DNA of 64,000 bases from a virus (IMGVR_UViG_2645727901_000008), one strand, 5' to 3'; positions 6,504-45,816 are shown, counted from the first letter of the stretch. Numbers and translations: made by a program. Notes: generated from the sequence alone by a model not told the origin.

Positions 6504-6700
6504 ATTGGCAGCCTCCTTTGACTAAGTTAAGGAGCTACCGCGTGAGGTTCCAATCTCAATGGCGGTAGCACTGACTGGGTTGGAACTACCGGCGTCAAAG
6601 GGAACCGGCCTGCCTTTCGGCAGCCCAGCCAGCACTACCATTGATCTCTGAGCTAAACGCTACGTATGGCTGTGCGATGGCATGACACAAAAAAAGACGC
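6504..6700 (-). ncRNA. candidate c4-like antisense/leader RNA region upstream of icd-like gene (copy 1)
   Basis: Minus-strand RNA contains CCCUUUGAC (about 6594-6602) complementary to GUCAAAGGAGG covering the icd-like SD (about 6512-6522); also a UAGCUCAG tRNA-like stretch. Confidence 0.3.
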
Positions 6701-6754
6701 TTTCGGCGTCTGTGTCGCCTTTGACATTATCCGGGGTTCCAATCCCGGCACCCG

Positions 6755-6777
6755 TTTTTCTAAGGTGCCGTAGAAAT
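6755..6777. promoter_or_regulatory. TTTCTA-N8-TAGAAA palindromic operator-like element upstream of immI-like copy 1
   Basis: cgTTTTTCTAAggtgccgTAGAAATAtacc; a related inverted arrangement sits upstream of copy 2 at about 44770-44800. Confidence 0.35.
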
Positions 6778-28086: not shown

Positions 28087-28479
28087 CTACCAGCGAGACA
28101 AACGAACAACATGTTTCACTTTTGCGATCCACTTTCCGCGATAACTATTGATTACGGCCTGTGCCAGCTTCAAATTGGCTTCAAAATCAGCCTTACTACC
28201 ATCAGACTCCACCAGCATTCCTCCATCTATTTCTGGTAAACATAGATAATCCTGCTCAACCTGCAGCGGCATTGATGGCTCTCTGAATGGCGTTACTTGC
28301 TCTGCTTTCCAGCGAAATCTAACCCTCATCCCCCTGGTGGTCATTACTAGATAGCCTGTTATAGTGCTTTTATGGCCCACATCAGTACGCGTGGCATTGC
28401 ATGACACGATCTTACAGTTAGCGATAGACCACTCCATATTGGTGGCCTGTTGAGTGCTTAATTTGGTAGTCCCGTACAT
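28087..28479 (-). CDS. hypothetical protein
   Basis: 130 aa; coupled to the upstream gene. Confidence 0.5.
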   Translation of the reverse strand: MYGTTKLSTQQATNMEWSIANCKIVSCNATRTDVGHKSTITGYLVMTTRGMRVRFRWKAEQVTPFREPSMPLQVEQDYLCLPEIDGGMLVESDGSKADFEANLKLAQAVINSYRGKWIAKVKHVVRLSRW

Positions 28480-29054
28480 CAGAAAGCCTCCCAGTCAGTC
28501 GCGATAATATCCACACCAGTTGCAAACCAGTCTGTCTGCGCCTGTAAATCACCATTCATCATTACCAGGCGAGGCATCACCATCACATCGCACCCTTCCA
28601 CAATATCGAATGCCTCTTCCGGCAAGAATTCGAAGAGCTTTTCTTTGCTGCCAATGCTGCCACGGAACATCGATATATAGCTCCCTTTAGGCCATGATGT
28701 CCGCCGGGCATCAAGCCCTTTCATCATCCAGTAAAAAGCCGAGGAAAAAGGGATATTCTTTTTGCCAATGATTACATTATTCGCTTCTGTGTACTTCAGG
28801 AACTTAACTAACCTTACCATTGACTCGGATAACGCAACGTATGGCTCATGATTGATTGCTGACACGCTTACACCGTGCAATCCAACGCTTACCACTGTCA
28901 TATCGCCGCTTTGTGCGGTTTCGATATTGACGCCTTTGCGAACTAATGAGGCGTAAAGTTCCTCTCGCTTTTGGGTCCAGCGTTCACGCTTCCCTATGAA
29001 GTCACTCAAAATGAGATCTTCTTCTGCATATGCGTTATCGTTCGCCATTAACAT
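28479..29054 (-). CDS. phage protein with C-terminal DUF2829-like module
   Basis: C-terminus FYWMMKGLDARRTSWPKG...TDWFATGVDIIATDWEAF. Confidence 0.55.
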   Translation of the reverse strand: MLMANDNAYAEEDLILSDFIGKRERWTQKREELYASLVRKGVNIETAQSGDMTVVSVGLHGVSVSAINHEPYVALSESMVRLVKFLKYTEANNVIIGKKNIPFSSAFYWMMKGLDARRTSWPKGSYISMFRGSIGSKEKLFEFLPEEAFDIVEGCDVMVMPRLVMMNGDLQAQTDWFATGVDIIATDWEAF

Positions 29055-29508
29055 AACGTCTCCTTTTTTACACGCGCGACTATCCCCCGGAAGTACCGGT
29101 AGTGATGTCGTAACTTCGTATTAATTAAGGGGTACAGCCTGAGCGGCTATATGATGAATTGAAAGGAGTTGTGGCGGTGGTGCCTCCACCTGCCAGGTTA
29201 GCCACTCCCGGCGACGTCACTTATCAGAACGTAGTGAATGAAAATGGCTTCGTCACGAGCGCATAGCCGCAATTACCACAACGGAAACGGCGCTCACGCT
29301 AATTAAACGCCTTTTCCTGTTGTGCGCCGTACTCTTCCGGCTGTCACACCGAATCGCCAGGATGGTGAGTCCTCGGTCCGACGATATGAACGGGGCTTGC
29401 ACATTCCGGCTACCTGGTTTGTTGCCTGAGCTAGGGGAAAAGGTAACCCCTTTAACGTCACCAGACCGCTAACGACGCATGTGCCATACGCCGTGTTACA
29501 ACCAAATA

Positions 29509-29584
29509 TGGTGGCCCCTACCGGACTTGAACCGGTGACCGTGCGATTATGAGTCGCCAGCTCTAACCACTGAGCTAAAGGGCC
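29509..29584 (-). tRNA. tRNA with CAU anticodon (Ile2/lysidine-type, or Met)
   Basis: 76 nt with encoded CCA; sequence is very close to E. coli tRNA-Ile2 (ileX) as recalled. Confidence 0.85.
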
Positions 29585-29594
29585 AATTAGTGTT

Positions 29595-29708
29595 TTATTT
29601 TCGACGCCTGAGATTCTTCGCGACTTGTTCTACGCCGTATACGATCACAAGTAGAAACAGCAAAAACCATCCAGGGTTCTTATCGATATACGTCCAAAAA
29701 TCCATCAT
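29595..29708 (-). CDS. micro membrane protein (37 aa)
   Basis: MMDFWTYIDKNPGWFLLFLLVIVYGVEQVAKNLRRRK; start overlaps upstream stop (ATGA); below track cutoff. Confidence 0.3.
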   Translation of the reverse strand: MMDFWTYIDKNPGWFLLFLLVIVYGVEQVAKNLRRRK

Positions 29709-29869
29709 GAGTTCCTGAACGCACCTTCAATAATCGGCAATAGCAATACCACAGCTACTGAAACTAATGCCCCATCAGCCAACACCGACATCACTTTGCT
29801 GGTGAAATCCACCAGTACGGACAAAACGAGAAAGCCAATGGCGCCCGCAATACGCGCCTTGCCAATCAT
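29705..29869 (-). CDS. small membrane protein (54 aa)
   Basis: MIGKARIAGAIGFLVLSVLVDF...; start overlaps the TerB-like stop (TAATG). Confidence 0.35.
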   Translation of the reverse strand: MIGKARIAGAIGFLVLSVLVDFTSKVMSVLADGALVSVAVVLLLPIIEGAFRNS

Positions 29870-30324
29870 TACAGATAATCTTCCACACGAAGGCCAAGAC
29901 GGCGACCAACCTCTTCCAGAACCTTATGCTCCGCAGGTTCGATTTCACCATCTGCTTCAGCGATCGTGAGCATGTTCACGAAGACTTCTTCCGCTTCTTT
30001 GGGATCGTTTTTGATATCTTCAATTTCGCGGAGGATATTCATGCGACCAACACGGAAACCAGCTTCCAGTTGCTCAGTAAAACGGGTGATTGTTGCGGTA
30101 ATTTCGTTGCCAAAATGACTTAAGCGAGGATTAGAGCGGACAAGCTGATCAAGTTTCGCTGTTTCTTCCTTTTCGATTTCACCATCTGCGGCAGACACCA
30201 GCAAACAGCCACCGATGATGGCCTCCATCAGATCGCGATTCTCAACCCTTTTCAGCTCTACTTTTGCTGAAGCGACTTTCTTACCGAAAAATTTACCGAA
30301 CATTGGTTTTCCCTCAATAAACAT
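29869..30324 (-). CDS. TerB-like protein (tellurite-resistance TerB fold)
   Basis: Two AADGEIE/AEADGEIE repeats typical of TerB-like domains. Confidence 0.65.
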   Translation of the reverse strand: MFIEGKPMFGKFFGKKVASAKVELKRVENRDLMEAIIGGCLLVSAADGEIEKEETAKLDQLVRSNPRLSHFGNEITATITRFTEQLEAGFRVGRMNILREIEDIKNDPKEAEEVFVNMLTIAEADGEIEPAEHKVLEEVGRRLGLRVEDYL

Positions 30325-30570
30325 GACGTATTTATTAGGTTGCGGTGCCTGGTGCCTCCAGGTGACGTTAACCAGTTAACAATTAACGCCGGGATTTTTG
30401 TCTTCACAATTAAGGAGGATTGTTTTAACTGTTCCGCGTGCGCTTAGCCGCATTCACCGCAATGGTAAGAGCACTTGGCTGGCTGGGCGGCGATGACGCC
30501 TGTACGCATTTGGTGAACCGGTTCTGCTTCCGGCATTCGCTTAATTAGCCAAATACTCTTAACGTTGCAC

Positions 30571-30657
30571 TGGCGGAGAGTAATGGAATCGAACCATCAT
30601 CGCTTGCGCAATGGGACGGTTTTCAAGACCGCTTGAGCACCATGCTCCCTACTCTCC
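30571..30657 (-). tRNA. class II tRNA, anticodon UGA (Ser-like), atypical short D-arm
   Basis: Perfect 7-bp acceptor stem plus CCA; anticodon loop CUUGAAA; long variable arm; T-loop TTCGATT. Confidence 0.55.
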
Positions 30658-30794
30658 CGTTATTGTGGCGACCGGTGCTGATCTCCGGCTTGCGGTTATT
30701 TCAGACTCTCACGGGCGTTTAATTGCCCCGCCGAACAGCTCTTTTCCGCAATAGCTGCAATGTCTTTCGCGCATCAGCCTGCGCATTCACCACA

Positions 30795-30878
30795 ATGTTG
30801 AGAACACTGGTTGTCACGCTGCAACGCAACATTTATTCGTAGATTGGGATATGACCCCGTTACGCCAGTGTTCTCAAC
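30795..30878. repeat. 13-bp perfect inverted repeat pair (TTGAGAACACTGG / CCAGTGTTCTCAA) with about 58-nt spacer
   Basis: Lies between tRNA genes in noncoding sequence. Confidence 0.4.
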
Positions 30879-31028
30879 GTTGTAGTGCCGGTTACGGTTC
30901 CGGCCAGGCCTCTTCCTCAACGGGTTGTTCTCCATACGGACTACCGTTTATTGGTCGTTCCTGCGGTTTATGTTGTGAAGCCAGATGCTTATCTTCTGGT
31001 TGCTTCAAAGAGCTGCACTTCATCACAA

Positions 31029-31100
31029 CGGTAAGGGTACTTCGTAGGGATTCGAACCCTCTGCCAAGCACGGCGATCTCCGACGTCGCAAAATACCCTT
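31029..31100 (-). other. tRNA-like structured element or tRNA remnant
   Basis: Contains a GGTTCGAATCC T-arm-like segment enclosed by a perfect 10-bp inverted repeat (GGTAAGGGTA / TACCCTTACC); no canonical D-arm. Confidence 0.25.
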
Positions 31101-31111
31101 ACCTGTTGCGT

Positions 31112-31187
31112 TGGTGCCGATTAACGGGATCGAACCGCTGACCATTCGCTTACAAAGCGACTGCTCTACCAACTGAGCTAAACCGGC
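31112..31187 (-). tRNA. tRNA-Thr (anticodon UGU)
   Basis: 76 nt; canonical cloverleaf; anticodon loop TTTGTAA; T-loop GGTTCGATCC; CCA encoded. Confidence 0.85.
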
Positions 31188-31191
31188 AATT

Positions 31192-31278
31192 TGGTGGGGA
31201 GTGATGGAGTCGAACCACCCGAGTCGCAATGACAGTAGATTTACAGTCTACCCCGCTACCCCTACGGACTAACTCCCC
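31192..31278 (-). tRNA. tRNA-Tyr (anticodon GUA), class II
   Basis: 87 nt; acceptor GGGGAGT/ACTCCCC; anticodon loop CTGTAAA; long variable arm. Confidence 0.8.
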
Positions 31279-31283
31279 TAAAG

Positions 31284-31360
31284 TGGCGATGGTGGGTGGA
31301 TTCGAACCACCGACCGACAGCTTAGAAGGCTGCTGCTCTATCCTACTGAGCTACACCATC
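31284..31360 (-). tRNA. tRNA-Arg (anticodon UCU)
   Basis: 77 nt; anticodon loop CTTCTAA; T-loop GGTTCGAATCC; CCA encoded. Confidence 0.8.
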
Positions 31361-32429
31361 ACTTGCCGGGTACGTCTCCGGCGAGGGCTTCCACCTCCGT
31401 ATGCTTTTCGGCGCACCGCGCCCTGGCTGCAATTCAGTAACAGGGGATGCATAACCCTGGCTTCCAGCGTGATTAGCGCCTTCAGCATGACGGGATATAC
31501 CCGTAACCAACAAACTTTCCCATATACCATCAAACAATGGCTGTTACGCGGGAGGGACGTAACAGGTAAGGGCGCTGACCAGAAAGACCTGACCCTTCTC
31601 ATTCATCTGGTTAATCACACCAGCGCCCTTGCCTGTTATGTCTCCCCGTTCCCTAATACACAGACGGGGACACTCTGCGGTCGATTTTTTGACGGGGGAC
31701 GACTCATACCCCGTGGCGTCTGGCTTCTTAGGCCGCTACCATCATCAGATCATCGTTTGCATTTACTTTAATGGTCGGTTTCTAAACCGCCGCAAAGCCG
31801 CTAACCATGACGAAAACCCTAAAAAAGCCCACCCGAAGATGGGCAAATACGCTACATCTCACACAAGAAAGAAGCCGACTGCCTGAGCTGGATTCACTTT
31901 CAAATGCCCGCAGAAAGGGAACACAAGTCGGCTTCTTTCTTGATGCGGCACTCTCTCCGCCCGTCACCGTTCTGTCTCGGTTGTCGCGTTTGCCACGCCA
32001 GCCGTAACGAGGTTTAAAGTCTTTGCACGTTTCCATCACTCGACTGCCGTCTGTGGCTGTTCGTTGCAGCGGGGGTGCCTCCCCCTGGGGATATCCCCGG
32101 CCTTACCCCATTCTTTCAAGACACAATGCAAGGCCGCATCCGCATAGGTGCATTACCGCAACATTAAGGAGACTTAGGGCAAAAGGTAATCGCCACAAAA
32201 AAAATCCCTATGCCTCCTTAATGTTGAGGATGTGCATTGATGATGATTCGATGCGGCGAGTCCCGTTACTCTCTGCCGGACCATCATCAATGAACATCTT
32301 AAAAAGACCTTCCGTGGCTCAACATGTCTTGTCGTTTACTCCGTAAAGTGCTCTCTCTGAAACCACTTTACGCACTAAACCTGCTGAACTTTGGCTTGCT
32401 CGGTGCCAAAGCGAGTCCCTGTATGTATG

Positions 32430-32450
32430 TAATTTTCTAACACTTTAATT
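32430..32450 (-). promoter_or_regulatory. operator-like motif copy
   Basis: taattTTCTAACActttaat on the plus strand. Confidence 0.35.
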
Positions 32451-32585
32451 TGTTATTTGCTGGTGGGCGAACAACAACCAATAAGTGACTATCAAGCCCA
32501 GCAAGCGAAATGTGGCAACGCTCCACCAGCAAGGAAAATTCTAAGTTAAGTTACTCTCACAATCAATACGTTCGTTTAGTGAAAT

Positions 32586-32605
32586 TAGATTTCTAACATT
32601 TTATT
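32586..32605 (-). promoter_or_regulatory. operator-like motif copy abutting the stop of 32601..33809
   Basis: agatTTCTAACAttttattt on the plus strand. Confidence 0.35.
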
Positions 32606-33809
32606 TCCCATAAAGATCTTCTACGCCCCCATTCTTCTTGTCCCATTCGTTAGCCCACACCCGGCAGGCATCAATAATTTCTTGACGACGGTCGCCCTGC
32701 ATAAAGGGGATGCTTTCATGAAAACTACTTGGGATACAGGCCACGCTGAATACGGTATCAAACGCAGTCTGTTTGATAGCTTCCAACGTCTCTGGGCGCA
32801 TTTTCAATTCATCGATCGGCGCATCCTTAGAGTCCATAATCCGGCGATGCAGGCGCGGGAAATCAGTCTCCAGGTACGCCATAATTTTATCTGCCAGGCA
32901 TTCGTCTATATCGGTATTCCAGTCCGTTTCGAAGCCGGGCAGGCGATAGTAAAGCGGCGTTCCCCATACTGATGGGATCACATCCATCGTCAGCAGGCGG
33001 TTGGTTCTAATTTGTTGATGGTAATTAGCCGTCAACAGAGCTTCACCACGCTGACCAGTCTCCGCAACCAGACCATGCGGGTACTCATGGATATAGGCAA
33101 TAGCATCCACCCCGTCATACATGAGCGGGAATGTCTCTGGCCTTTGTCCCATACCACAAGCGCGGTTCAGATCATGACCAAGCTGTGAGCACTCTCGTTT
33201 CAGCGTTTCAATAATGTTCTGCGCTGTTGCTAACTTTTTACGCAGTGTGACGCCTTCGCCTTGATACTTAATGCATTGCTGATTCAGCTCTGTTAAACGC
33301 TCTTTTAGTTCCCGACGCTCTCTTTTCAGCGCACGGTTATCCTTCTCCGCAACATCCAGTCGTTTTGACAGACTGGCTGGATAGTCTTTTTTGTAACGAC
33401 TCAAATCGGCTTCTGCGGATTTGCGCAGTGTGTTTGCCTGTTCAAGACGCGCTTCCAGATTACCGATCTCACTACGCATATTCGCGGCAAATTGATTAAC
33501 AGCATTGCCAAGACTTTCAACTGTCGCTGATACGCCTGTGACTTGTGAAAAACGGATCAAGCCATCATTAACGGCTTGTTGATATCCCTCAAACTGATCC
33601 ACCAGCTTGTTGTAATCAACCGTCCCTTCCTCAAGTAGCTGGTTGATCTCCGCGACCAGGTTATCAGTAGTGGCAATGACGCTCTCATGTAACCGTCTGG
33701 ACAGGTCATCCCCCGGATTCCGCTTTTGAATAAGGGCGATCTGTGTCCGCAGCGTTTCAATCGCGGCTGAGATGATTTCCAGATTAGAAGTATCAGTTTG
33801 TTGACTCAT
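32601..33809 (-). CDS. hypothetical phage protein with coiled-coil N-terminal half
   Basis: Track ORF 32601..33893; start moved to MSQQTD (GGGAA RBS) because the first 28 codons overlap the operator/promoter region. Confidence 0.6.
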   Translation of the reverse strand: MSQQTDTSNLEIISAAIETLRTQIALIQKRNPGDDLSRRLHESVIATTDNLVAEINQLLEEGTVDYNKLVDQFEGYQQAVNDGLIRFSQVTGVSATVESLGNAVNQFAANMRSEIGNLEARLEQANTLRKSAEADLSRYKKDYPASLSKRLDVAEKDNRALKRERRELKERLTELNQQCIKYQGEGVTLRKKLATAQNIIETLKRECSQLGHDLNRACGMGQRPETFPLMYDGVDAIAYIHEYPHGLVAETGQRGEALLTANYHQQIRTNRLLTMDVIPSVWGTPLYYRLPGFETDWNTDIDECLADKIMAYLETDFPRLHRRIMDSKDAPIDELKMRPETLEAIKQTAFDTVFSVACIPSSFHESIPFMQGDRRQEIIDACRVWANEWDKKNGGVEDLYGK

Positions 33810-44439: not shown

Positions 44440-44570
44440 AGTTACGGCCTCACTAACAGGTTTAACAACCTGCTACCCGCTGCTAAACAGGTGGCAGGAC
44501 GTGACGGGGTTAGCAGACTGGCGTTAGTGAAACCAGCAGGCCGAAGCCTCCCCATCACGCCCCACCATAA
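44440..44570 (-). ncRNA. candidate c4-like antisense/leader RNA region (copy 2)
   Basis: Minus-strand RNA has UUCACUAAC (about 44523-44531) complementary to GUUAGUGAGG spanning the icd-like SD (about 44448-44457), and CUGCUAACC pairing with GUUUAGCAG. Confidence 0.3.
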
Positions 44571-44785
44571 TTTGGGCGTAACGCGGTTTTACGGACACAA
44601 AAATACCGCAATATCGGATATCTGCGGTTGTCCGCACTAACATTCAGGCTGCTAAACCCGGTCGCAGAATTTGCTACGACGACATGAATATAAGCCTGAA
44701 AACATGGAAGATCAACTAAAAATTTCAGCAATAGATGACTTCAGTCGATGATGCAGATCATACATTCCGATTTAGAAACGGCAAA

Positions 44786-44805
44786 TTAATTTTCTAACAC
44801 AAAAT
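44786..44805 (-). promoter_or_regulatory. operator-like motif copy with inverted partner (TTAGAAA-N12-TTTCTAA)
   Basis: atTTAGAAAcggcaaattaaTTTTCTAACACaaaatg. Confidence 0.4.
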
Positions 44806-44853
44806 GTCGAGCGAGCATTTTCCGATCATTGGGATGTTTTGTAGACGCACAGG

Positions 44854-45816
44854 TCACCCCCTAAAGCCAGCCGGGATTGACCAATCCTCACGGTCAAATT
44901 CAGACCGATAGCCACGCTGTTTCATCAGGTCAAAGGCTTCACCAATGGTTGCACACCCCTGGGAGCCAGAATAATCCATTGAGAAATCCAGGGCACTGGA
45001 TTGTTTAGGCTTATTCACTGCGGTAGCGGCACTACGTATCCATGCAAATTTTTTTGCCAGCTTTTCAGCGGTACGATACAGAGCCTGCCGTTTTGTGTGC
45101 CCCTCGTCTGAACGACGCTTTGCAGCTCTCGCTTTTGCCGCCGCCAGGCAGTGGTTGGTCTGTTCTTCCCTGATTACTGTTTTTTTATCCAGCACCCCGT
45201 TATCCGTTTGAGAACTATCTGCTGGTGAAGCCTTTGGCTGAACCGCGCATGATCTTTCTCTTCTTTTGGCTATAGAGTGACTCTTATTTTCTATTGGCTG
45301 TTCATTTTGAACATGGGGGGACTTGTTCAATTTGAACAGGGGGTTCCCAGTTTCAAAAAAATAACGAACCTTTGAAATCAACTGCTTAACCAGTTTTGTG
45401 GCGTTGGCAAATTTGATGCCCTGCTTACCCCCTATCTCCATTGCTACATGAATGAAGTGGAGAAATTGTGTCGTAAACCGATATACGTTACACACCTGGG
45501 CATTGTTATTCGCTACCTGATGTTGCTTAACAAGCATTCCGCACTTCGTCGCTTCAGCAAATGCCCGGCGTACAGTAGAAATACTGCGTCCTGTAATCTC
45601 GGACATATCAGCATATGAGCGACGGATCATGTATTCATCGGTAGACCCTGCCAGGTTGGCGAACTCGGCAATAATGGCGCTATGTGAAGGGGAAAGAAGA
45701 CCGCTATGACGAGCAAAAAAACTCAACTGATGACCTTTGATTTTTTTGTGGTATTCAGTGTTGTTTTTATACTCAGAAGTGTTGAAAGTTACTGAAACTG
45801 AATTTAAAATATTCAT
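44854..45816 (-). CDS. hypothetical DNA-binding protein (possible replication/regulatory protein)
   Basis: 320 aa; HTH-like stretch SISTVRRAFAEATKCGMLV; basic C-terminal half. Confidence 0.55.
   Translation of the reverse strand: MNILNSVSVTFNTSEYKNNTEYHKKIKGHQLSFFARHSGLLSPSHSAIIAEFANLAGSTDEYMIRRSYADMSEITGRSISTVRRAFAEATKCGMLVKQHQVANNNAQVCNVYRFTTQFLHFIHVAMEIGGKQGIKFANATKLVKQLISKVRYFFETGNPLFKLNKSPHVQNEQPIENKSHSIAKRRERSCAVQPKASPADSSQTDNGVLDKKTVIREEQTNHCLAAAKARAAKRRSDEGHTKRQALYRTAEKLAKKFAWIRSAATAVNKPKQSSALDFSMDYSGSQGCATIGEAFDLMKQRGYRSEFDREDWSIPAGFRG

Follow-up and report, generated by a model that had tools for sequence, protein, structure and literature searches.

Five tRNA genes and their origin

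We analyzed a cluster of tRNA genes, and the hairpins that lie among them, in a viral DNA of 64,000 nucleotides (IMGVR_UViG_2645727901_000008; the whole of this stretch is referred to as the window). All features of the cluster, comprising five tRNA genes, long hairpins, tciA, tciB and a tciC-like open reading frame (ORF), read on the minus strand. The original prediction, which was made from the sequence and described five tRNA genes plus a palindromic tRNA-like remnant, gave no strand. The stretch 29509-31647 (minus strand) is the stable-RNA part of an accessory operon of the tciA/tciB/ban type, carried by a phage-plasmid of the D6/P1 family. About 2.3 kb around the cluster share 94.6% identity with phage D6 and 89-93% with P7 and P1, and are 95-97% identical over their full length to many Escherichia coli plasmids of 87-95 kb. 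Over 786 bases compared, identity to plasmid P2 of E. coli GZ2408P (RefSeq NZ_JBYCWU010000003.1) is 100%. The homologous stretch of P1 is annotated as the repressor-controlled ban operon, with the order Pban/Oban, 'dicF-like region', trnA (Asn), trnT (Thr), tciA, tciB, tciC, trnI and ban; plp ('putative lipoprotein') and upl are annotated there on the opposite strand. Asn, Thr, Ser and 'Met' tRNAs have been described beside tciA/tciB in D6-like plasmids (PMC6799933).

ARAGORN identifies exactly five tRNAs in the window, each with an encoded CCA: tRNA-Arg(UCU), which reads AGA and AGG (31284-31360); the class II tRNA-Tyr(GUA) (31192-31278); tRNA-Thr(UGU), which reads ACA (31112-31187); the class II tRNA-Ser(UGA), which reads UCA and has G73 (30571-30657); and a tRNA with a CAU anticodon of the Ile2 (lysidine) type (29509-29584). 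The spacers are 5 nt between Arg and Tyr and 4 nt between Tyr and Thr, as had been predicted. In the identical plasmid, PGAP annotates tRNA-Arg, Tyr, Thr, Ser and Ile at matching positions. The Rfam tRNA model (RF00005, gathering score 29 bits) recovers Arg (72.1 bits), Thr (65.2 bits), the CAU tRNA (64.7 bits) and Tyr (41.9 bits), and misses Ser. The five identities in the original prediction are thus right, including the Ser-like and CAU calls that it had left open to rejection by tRNA predictors and that ARAGORN and PGAP both make.

The unusually short D arm noticed in the Ser-like tRNA is real. In the ARAGORN fold, which is that of a 7/5 class II molecule, the D stem has 3 bp, the D loop 9 nt and the connector a single nucleotide. 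We considered and rejected a tRNA-Sec or allo-tRNA identity: the tRNA-Sec model RF01852 gives 43.5 bits, under its gathering score of 47, the anticodon UGA is that of Ser, and both the standard 7/5 form and the short D stem depart from the 8/5 or 9/4 geometry, the 6-bp D stem with its 4-nt loop and the UCA (or another non-Ser) anticodon that such an identity requires. The CAU tRNA agrees with P1 trnI at 76 of 76 positions, and the P1 annotation describes trnI as 89% identical to E. coli ileX; judged by its sequence, the CAU tRNA is of the Ile2 type, with an ileX-like rather than a Met body.

tRNA-Ser matches the Ser tRNA of rV5-like phages at 82 of 91 positions, and the short D arm is conserved there. 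The variable arm differs between the two while its pairs are kept (A-U/G.U and C-G/A-U), and the acceptor pair A5-U68 is replaced by G5.U68. Similarly, the T stems of the scaffold shared by Asn and Arg tRNAs occur as GGTGG/CCACC and as GATGG/CCATC. Identity elements are present in the sequences, namely A20, C35 and U36 in Arg, and G73 with a long variable arm in Ser. We regard all five as real genes, predicted to be functional rather than pseudogenes.

Codon use was compared between 53 mechanically called ORFs of the window (15,235 codons) and 32 long genes from one 50-kb segment of E. coli K-12 (13,600 codons). The six most enriched of the 61 codons are AGA (8.0x) and AGG (5.8x), read by Arg-UCU, the latter through wobble; AUA (4.5x; Ile2-CAU); ACA (3.4x; Thr-UGU); CGA (2.65x), for which the cluster has no tRNA; and UCA (2.4x; Ser-UGA). 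Four of the five tRNAs have their exact cognate codons at ranks 1, 3, 4 and 6 among the 61, and a hypergeometric estimate puts the chance of four out of five random codons falling in the top six at about 1e-4. This match is the classical codon-supplement pattern, and the main role of these four tRNAs would be to make up for scarce host tRNAs when the element's own genes are translated. No enrichment was seen for Tyr codons (1.1-1.35x); tRNA-Tyr(GUA) lies outside the pattern and may serve another purpose.

Such a purpose could be counter-defence, in which the tRNAs, above all Tyr and Arg, would replace host tRNAs destroyed by anticodon nucleases instead of supplementing codons. tRNA-Tyr of T5 rescues infection from retron-Eco7 PtuAB, which degrades tRNA-Tyr (PMC11555353), and evasion of tRNA-targeting defences has been proposed for phage tRNAs (PMC10264068). 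The rapid turnover of the tRNA set among relatives, the Tad2-like anti-Thoeris gene just downstream of the CAU tRNA and the failure of codon use to explain Tyr are in line with this idea. However, the match of four of the five tRNAs to the most over-used rare codons is a direct prediction of the codon account. Moreover, the anticodon loops give no sign of nuclease-escape changes: CUGUAAA in Tyr and CUUCUAA in Arg do not differ from the sequences that we take to be the host loops. We consider it unlikely that counter-defence takes the place of codon supplementation, with which it is compatible and not mutually exclusive.

The tRNA set varies among 44 related loci. The commonest arrangement is that of P1 (Asn-Thr...CAU); Asn-Thr-Ser...CAU is found in D6 and P7, Asn-Tyr-Thr...CAU also occurs among the 44 loci, and Arg-Tyr-Thr-Ser...CAU is present in the window and three others (L006, L007 and L010). 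The set therefore differs, as the original prediction held, from the three tRNAs of P1, which are Asn, Thr and Ile. There are also deletion forms, among them locus L023, where a natural fused tRNA at about 2466-2545 has the 5' half of Asn and the 3' half of Thr.

tRNA-Arg(UCU) and the Asn(GUU) tRNA of one related locus (L020) are identical in alignment columns 1-15, 22-28 and 46-77. The two share acceptor stem, D stem, variable loop, T arm and discriminator, and differ only in the D loop, in which Arg gains A20, and in the anticodon arm. In both of these parts, tRNA-Arg(UCU) is similar to its counterpart in phita32, an rV5-like phage. By this comparison of its parts, tRNA-Arg(UCU) is a chimera, built on the Asn tRNA scaffold of the family with D loop and anticodon arm exchanged. 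ArgRS reads A20, C35 and U36, and AsnRS reads the anticodon and G73; because of these identity rules, the parts changed in Arg are those needed for a switch from Asn to Arg identity.

tRNA-Thr combines acceptor, D and T arms of the P1 type with an anticodon arm of the type found in tRNA-Thr of Sf6 and phage 21, and tRNA-Tyr is identical to tRNA-Tyr of phita32 at 81 of 87 positions. The set probably arose by recombination among phage tRNA cassettes, and the locus is, as far as these mosaics indicate, a recombination hotspot for such cassettes. On the minus strand of the phita32 tRNA cluster (L087), ARAGORN also reports an odd tRNA-like gene of 99 nt with a four-base anticodon call, tRNA-???(atcc).

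A hairpin family and its second domain

The palindromic sequence is a hairpin, hpC (31024-31110). The perfect 10-bp inverted repeat reported around a T-arm-like sequence was confirmed: GGTAAGGGTA (31030-31039) pairs with TACCCTTACC (31094-31103), and the T-arm-like AGGGTTCGAATCCCT lies in the interior at 31046-31060. As minus-strand RNA, the repeat extends to 13 bp and, with one bulged A (A31104), to a helix of about 21 bp from C31110-G31024 through G31089-C31044. The predicted fold has -40.4 kcal/mol (z = -4.6), and 0 of 200 shuffles were as good. hpC begins 1 nt past the CCA of tRNA-Thr. It is 97-100% identical across P1-like loci and 99% identical in P1, where it lies inside the plp ORF annotated on the other strand.

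hpC belongs to a family with four paralogous members in the window (hpA-D), each an imperfect RNA helix of about 21 bp. hpA (30458-30569; fold z = -4.1), identified by alignment of the family arms, starts 1 nt past the CCA of tRNA-Ser. hpB (30788-30887; -49.3 kcal/mol, z = -6.1) has a 23-bp stem with one C.A mismatch. hpD (31551-31647), found by an inverted-repeat search and by folding, lies upstream of tRNA-Arg; its 27-nt arms are 85% complementary and carry the family motif AACAGGCAAGGG / CCCTTACCTGTT. Further hairpin types are present in relatives (hpE, hpF and hpG) and in a lambdoid prophage. Family arms share CAAC(A)GGTAAGRGYAT and RTRCYCTTACCGTTGYG, and the interiors, of 21-66 nt, are unrelated and unalignable. 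The palindrome noted originally is thus genuine, but it is not the lone relic that the word remnant implied.

In an alignment of 16 arm sequences, 92.6% of the cells are paired and both sides have changed in 9 of 21 pairs. None of 500 shuffles reached the observed covariation score, and controls in which the register was slid gave 35-52% pairing. G.U pairs exceed A.C on the sense (tRNA) strand by about 3:1, and by 52:13 in a wider set, which indicates selection on the transcript rather than on duplex DNA. Irregularities of the helix are also conserved, namely a bulged A, a U.U or U-A position and a U.G pair. We conclude that the stems very probably constitute a structural module at the level of RNA and not a tRNA relic. 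A role of hpA-D as intrinsic terminators was rejected: the main stems have no following U runs and are absent from the sites listed by the terminator scan, which places just one site within a hairpin, a small weak stem in the 3' arm of hpD (31565-31541). In two related loci (L022 and L023, at about 2764-2870), hybrid hairpins join an hpB 5' arm to an hpF 3' arm via a shared interior, giving a mismatched stem.

The 3' arms of hpA, hpB and hpC run into GGUGAAU and a second domain, whose closing helix reuses the GUUGYG of the hairpin base. The module can be written as CACAAC, hairpin, GUUGYGNUG, second domain and CANCRCAAC. The domain after hpA, A2 (30341-30461), forms the 5' leader of tciA and is STnc100-like (RF02076, 38.9 bits, model positions 31-147). 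B2 (30663-30797), recognized by folding and sequence matches, contains GGUGAAU, a hairpin GCGCAGGCUGAUGCGC ... CCGGAGAUCAGCACCGG and the closing helix UUGUGGUG/CGCCACAA, and ends 5 nt ahead of tRNA-Ser. C2 (30972-31029), which follows hpC, is short and is closed by GUUGUGA/UCACAAC according to its sequence; its fold is weak (z = -1.7). Copies of B2 with about 97-99% identity are found in E. coli chromosomal prophages, and the A2 domain also lies between DicF and dicB in the Qin prophage of K-12. Of 111 distinct contexts, 77 contain, at a distance of 25-230 nt downstream, the reverse complement of the 9-mer at the hairpin 3' end, compared with 3.2% in shuffles. This test allowed Watson-Crick pairs only; an earlier version that allowed G.U gave 8.1 of 9 in shuffles. 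The closing helix co-varies as well (GCUG/CAGC, GGUG/CACC and GCGG/CCGC).

Both STnc100 and the related PasD are small RNAs (sRNAs) of prophages; the Pas sRNAs bind Hfq, and PasD is located close to Q (bioRxiv 10.64898/2026.05.13.724894). Membership in STnc100 (RF02076, a model of 206 positions with a gathering score of 47) was not accepted: A2 scores 38.9 bits, the P1 copy 33.4 and the Qin copy 34.4, and we speak of likeness only. In 29300-32700, neither DicF (RF00039; K-12 control 76.7 bits) nor YrlA (RF02553) gave a match at E values up to 5. A weak YrlA match in P1 (25.6 bits, gathering score 69) lies over two tRNA genes. The idea that DicF is enclosed by family arms in Qin was also dropped, as the sequence concerned (L004) has no 5' arm upstream of DicF.

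The pattern of the commonest arm matches at least 120 viral contigs and 37 species-representative genome records, many of them from Enterobacterales and others from unrelated taxa. Phage lambda has a copy of the hairpin at 44,790-44,860, directly after the 6S/tR' terminator and before S. The hpA interior is identical at 76 of 83 positions to lambda 44,858-44,940, the segment that follows the lambda hairpin, and therefore frames and contents recombine. Phage JEP4, which is P22-like, and contig L094 have the module after tR', in exactly the slot where Sf6 has tRNA-Asn and tRNA-Thr; Sf6 itself is without the hairpin, so that 'Asn-Thr-hairpin' is no fixed unit. In epsilon15-like contigs, the hairpin 3' arm abuts tRNA-Arg. 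Wherever a tRNA occurs in the same locus as the hairpin, it is on the same strand. No Rfam family covers the hairpin in the window, its relatives or the lambdoid module that were scanned; a full-text literature search for the arm sequences gave no match, and we found no function annotated for the lambda copy. A transcriptome preprint on P1vir and hfq mentions the region only through changes in trnA and trnI. Several low-coverage contigs (L212, L231 and L238 of about 48.4-48.5 kb, L223 and L228 of 20-24 kb, and other short ones) have the 71-nt hairpin length of lambda and sit in assemblies of Pseudomonas, Shewanella, Oceanobacillus, Neobacillus and others; these are presumably phage lambda contamination of the assemblies.

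Around the RNA features, the window carries tciA of the TerB family (29869-30324; PF05099, E = 2.3e-14, and the P1 and D6 annotation), tciB (29705-29869; DUF3927, PF13064, E = 1.4e-17) and a tciC-like ORF of 37 aa (29595-29708), which has the position of P1 tciC and no Pfam match. Just downstream of the CAU tRNA, an ORF of 191 aa (28479-29054, minus strand) is Tad2-like (PF11195, E = 1.1e-9). The PGAP annotation of the identical plasmid also places it in the Tad2 family, and in P1 this position is taken by the ban helicase. Upstream of the tRNAs, 31361-32600 (minus strand) is a 1.2-kb stretch without a convincing ORF, one section of which corresponds to the 'dicF-like region' of P1, but the Rfam DicF model does not match. 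The stretch has the only promoter-like site found (32566-32538) and, at 31844-31827, a strong hairpin that is followed by a U run and resembles a terminator; these sites suggest a small RNA or leader of its own. The P1 C1 operator (ATTGCTCTAATAAATTT, up to 3 mismatches) has no site in the whole window.

Downstream of the CAU tRNA, 29200-29508 is 89% identical to part (L005, 2763-2874) of a leader that follows the repressor gene in a lambdoid E. coli prophage. That leader also contains a family hairpin, a 99% identical B2 domain and a DicF-like hairpin. Elsewhere in the window there are two C4 antisense RNA matches, at 6558-6768 and at 44487-44693 (minus strand), with 77.1 and 70 bits; an isrK match lies beside one and a c4 a1/b1 target match beside the other, and the element therefore has two immI-like immunity regions. 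A second immI-related region has been mentioned for D6-like plasmids (PMC6799933).

Interpretation of the hairpin modules

Taken together, a joint reading appears to us probable, if by no great distance: functional tRNAs that match the codon use of the element, a recombinant set, and RNA helix modules that act as processing or stability elements of the RNase III type. The modules would be co-transcribed with the tRNAs in a single precursor and would act at the RNA level. As double-stranded elements of the RNase III type, the stems would separate or release tRNAs, sRNA-like domains and the tciA mRNA from this long precursor, and cleavage there may bear on tRNA maturation. The processing or stability role of the stems, taken by itself, is a plausible suggestion with less than an even chance of being correct. 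It is proposed because the stems are of about 20 bp and because hpC and hpA start one base past the CCA of tRNA-Thr and tRNA-Ser. RNase III substrates span about two helical turns (about 20 bp) of largely Watson-Crick duplex, and the predicted stems have 19-23 bp with one bulge or mismatch. Among the three explanations that the original prediction offered for the palindrome, it is thus the processing element that we favour; a degenerate tRNA could at most account for the interior of hpC, and an integration-site remnant found no support.

Several points weigh against this interpretation. The RNase III role is argued from stem length (about 19-23 bp, irregular) and position alone, and a pure processing role does not account for the unrelated interiors. 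The terminator-like hairpin described above lies between the sole promoter-like site and the cluster, so that a single transcription unit is not established. The arms were chosen for complementarity and the paralogues share ancestry, so that the shuffle test overstates independence, and the hpC orthologues, nearly identical to one another, have almost no covariation of their own. The natural deletion variants with mismatched hybrid stems (L022 and L023) imply that a given copy is dispensable. With respect to the tRNAs, the host codon sample is confined to the 32 K-12 genes of one segment, the window ORFs were called mechanically, and codon use leaves Tyr unexplained.

The main rival holds that hairpin and second domain are scaffolds of base-pairing sRNAs of the STnc100/PasD kind. 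The frame would provide stability and chaperone binding, and the variable interiors would be target-recognition segments. This accounts better for frames that are conserved around interiors that are unrelated between copies. It also agrees with the STnc100 match of A2, with the nature of STnc100 and PasD as prophage sRNAs, and with the P22-like phages, where the module occupies a slot that relatives use for tRNA genes. However, every STnc100 match obtained here is under the gathering score, the lambdoid module of L094 has no Rfam match at all, and the window domains are without the terminator hairpin and U tract described for Pas sRNAs. We regard an sRNA scaffold as possible, and the assignment of frames and interiors to these two functions as equally tentative.

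The module may also be more general than either proposal. Although the evidence makes this no better than a tentative idea, it could be a 'framing' RNA, widespread but so far undescribed, in temperate phages of enterobacteria (lambda, P22-like, epsilon15-like and P1/D6-like). It might then be a processable scaffold for variable short RNA cargos, such as seed-like segments, T-arm-like mimics and leader pieces. One may further speculate that it is a cassette exchanged with tRNA genes in operon leaders, in which case the T-arm-like insert of hpC would be cargo and not debris.

A rival reading of hpC itself is a decayed tRNA gene, that is, a functionless pseudogene left by a deletion inside a former tRNA. 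The interior holds a perfect T arm (AGGG-UUCGAAU-CCCU), hpC directly adjoins three tRNAs, UAUUUUG/CGAAGUA can be read as a 7-bp acceptor stem, and recombination that truncates or fuses tRNAs does happen at the locus, as in the Asn/Thr fusion. Yet hpC has a T arm but no recognisable acceptor, D or anticodon arm, and it was rejected as a tRNA or tRNA pseudogene. ARAGORN at a lowered threshold (-ps80) finds no tRNA in hpC. The Rfam tRNA model makes no call either: a cmscan of 97 nt of hpC returned only T-arm matches of 13-15 nt (tmRNA and plastid) and mascRNA (14.2 bits, E = 1.1). BLAST of the interior gave only T-arm matches of 21-22 nt (E of about 1-4). The arms of hpC are homologous to those of hpA, hpB, hpD and about 75 other hairpins whose interiors are not tRNA-like, and its conservation across P1-like loci is unlike that of a decaying gene. 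We consider decay improbable.

The remaining readings (antitermination, attC-like sites and protein coding) are weaker than an sRNA scaffold because of the points counted against each. The modules could be antitermination signals, boxA/nut-like or put-like, that let RNA polymerase cross a long stretch of untranslated sequence. UGCUCUUU, presumably the core of rrn boxA, occurs in the commonest 3' arm, and a small G+C hairpin (GCGCAGGCUGAUGCGC) follows this boxA-like core after 11-13 nt, recalling the order boxA-boxB; the region, of about 2.5 kb, yields mostly untranslated RNA, and the lambda copy lies in the late leader. Against this, the boxA-like bases are locked in a 21-bp helix, the motif is missing from hpB, hpC and hpD (GUGUUCUCA, GUACCCUUA and GCGCCCUUA), and lambda late transcription already has Q. 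An antitermination role is very improbable.

Marginally less credible still is the view that the inverted repeats act as DNA, either as attC-like sites of cassette exchange or as integration-site remnants. It draws on the invariant AAC...GTT at the arm ends together with a bulged base, on the direct CACAAC repeats that flank the module, and on variable interiors and neighbouring cassettes that differ between relatives with breakpoints in or near the arms. But only AAC...GTT and the bulge fit when tested against attC: the flanks violate the core consensus (CACAAC is not RYYYAAC, and GTTGTGG is not GTTRRRY). The G.U excess favours a sense-strand transcript, the hairpin is always co-oriented with the tRNAs and the operon, and homologous recombination between repeated arms would give mosaics without a dedicated recombinase. 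An attachment-site remnant is unlikely given that the prophage is a plasmid and that hpC is conserved in P1.

The least credible reading, that the region encodes plus-strand proteins (plp and upl, as annotated in P1 over this stretch) and that the palindrome is incidental, could appeal to a plus-strand ORF of 96 aa at 30851-31141 in the window, but this ORF extends at its 3' end into the tRNA-Thr gene and is without a Pfam match; of about 41 related loci in which hpC is kept, 24 lack the ORF, and the conserved features of the region are paired arms with compensatory changes. P1 69472-70041 (L001; NC_005856) corresponds to window positions of about 30790-31141 (plus strand); plp and upl overlie hpC, C2 and hpB there, and plp overlaps trnT. 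Both are probably mis-annotations of a structured-RNA region.

Comparison with known systems

The closest systems are the P1 ban operon and its counterparts in D6 and P7, which have the same locus and order (tRNAs, tciA, tciB, tciC and CAU tRNA). The CAU tRNA of the window is that of P1, and the Ser tRNA of the D6/P7 set is 99-100% identical. Unlike P1, D6 and P7, the window has Arg(UCU) and Tyr(GUA) in place of Asn, and its Thr anticodon stem differs; unlike P1, it has the Tad2-like gene and not ban downstream of the CAU tRNA. The lytic phage phita32, an rV5-like Vequintavirus, has the cluster Arg-Tyr-Ser-Thr-Met-Pro. Similar to the window, Arg is followed by Tyr, the Tyr and Ser tRNAs are close (including the short D arm of Ser), and the Arg D loop and anticodon arm are alike. 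By contrast, the Thr and CAU tRNAs of the window are only about 71-73% identical to their phita32 counterparts, and the acceptor and T arms of its Arg tRNA are of the P1-Asn type. No family hairpin modules were mapped in the phita32 cluster, which was not examined further. Whole tRNAs close to those of lytic phages are most simply explained by exchange, and the Arg tRNA adds to the evolution of tRNA sets an example in which anticodon arms are apparently swapped on a shared scaffold, here from Asn to Arg.

The lambda late leader, from tR' to S, has the same hairpin family and a second domain closed by GUUGUGCUG/CAGCACAAC. The lambda/P22-like slot shares with the window a link to tRNA slots, as Sf6 and phage 21 carry tRNA-Asn and tRNA-Thr there. 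Lambda has one copy in a Q-dependent late leader, whereas the window has four copies among tRNAs, in an operon that is repressor-controlled and early in P1. STnc100 and the Qin copy, which comes right after DicF in K-12, share the GGUGAAU domain and the closing helix (STnc100 positions 31-147); they are set apart by scores of 33-39 against 47 bits and by the lack of a terminator in the window domains. In addition, the window gives no match to DicF, and family arms do not surround DicF.

RNase III stems, as in the rRNA operon, at the early sites of T7 and in DicF maturation, are imperfect stems of about 20 bp that border stable RNA genes in polycistronic transcripts. The predicted window stems are alike in length, imperfection and placement beside stable RNA genes. 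In contrast to those stems, the window stem encloses a short variable insert and not a mature RNA.

In conclusion, the tRNA cluster belongs to a known kind, is recombinant and is already annotated in public records; it is an ordinary but clean case of a phage-plasmid tRNA set that tracks its own rare-codon load. The supposed remnant exposes a conserved structured RNA element without an Rfam family, which is present in the lambda late leader and in P1, where it is hidden under the probably spurious plp and upl ORFs. If the modules do process tRNA and sRNA precursors or frame small RNAs, this would explain how temperate phages express and exchange stable-RNA cassettes. The remnant is a copy of an unannotated and widespread phage RNA hairpin, and it is the part of the locus that is worth following up.

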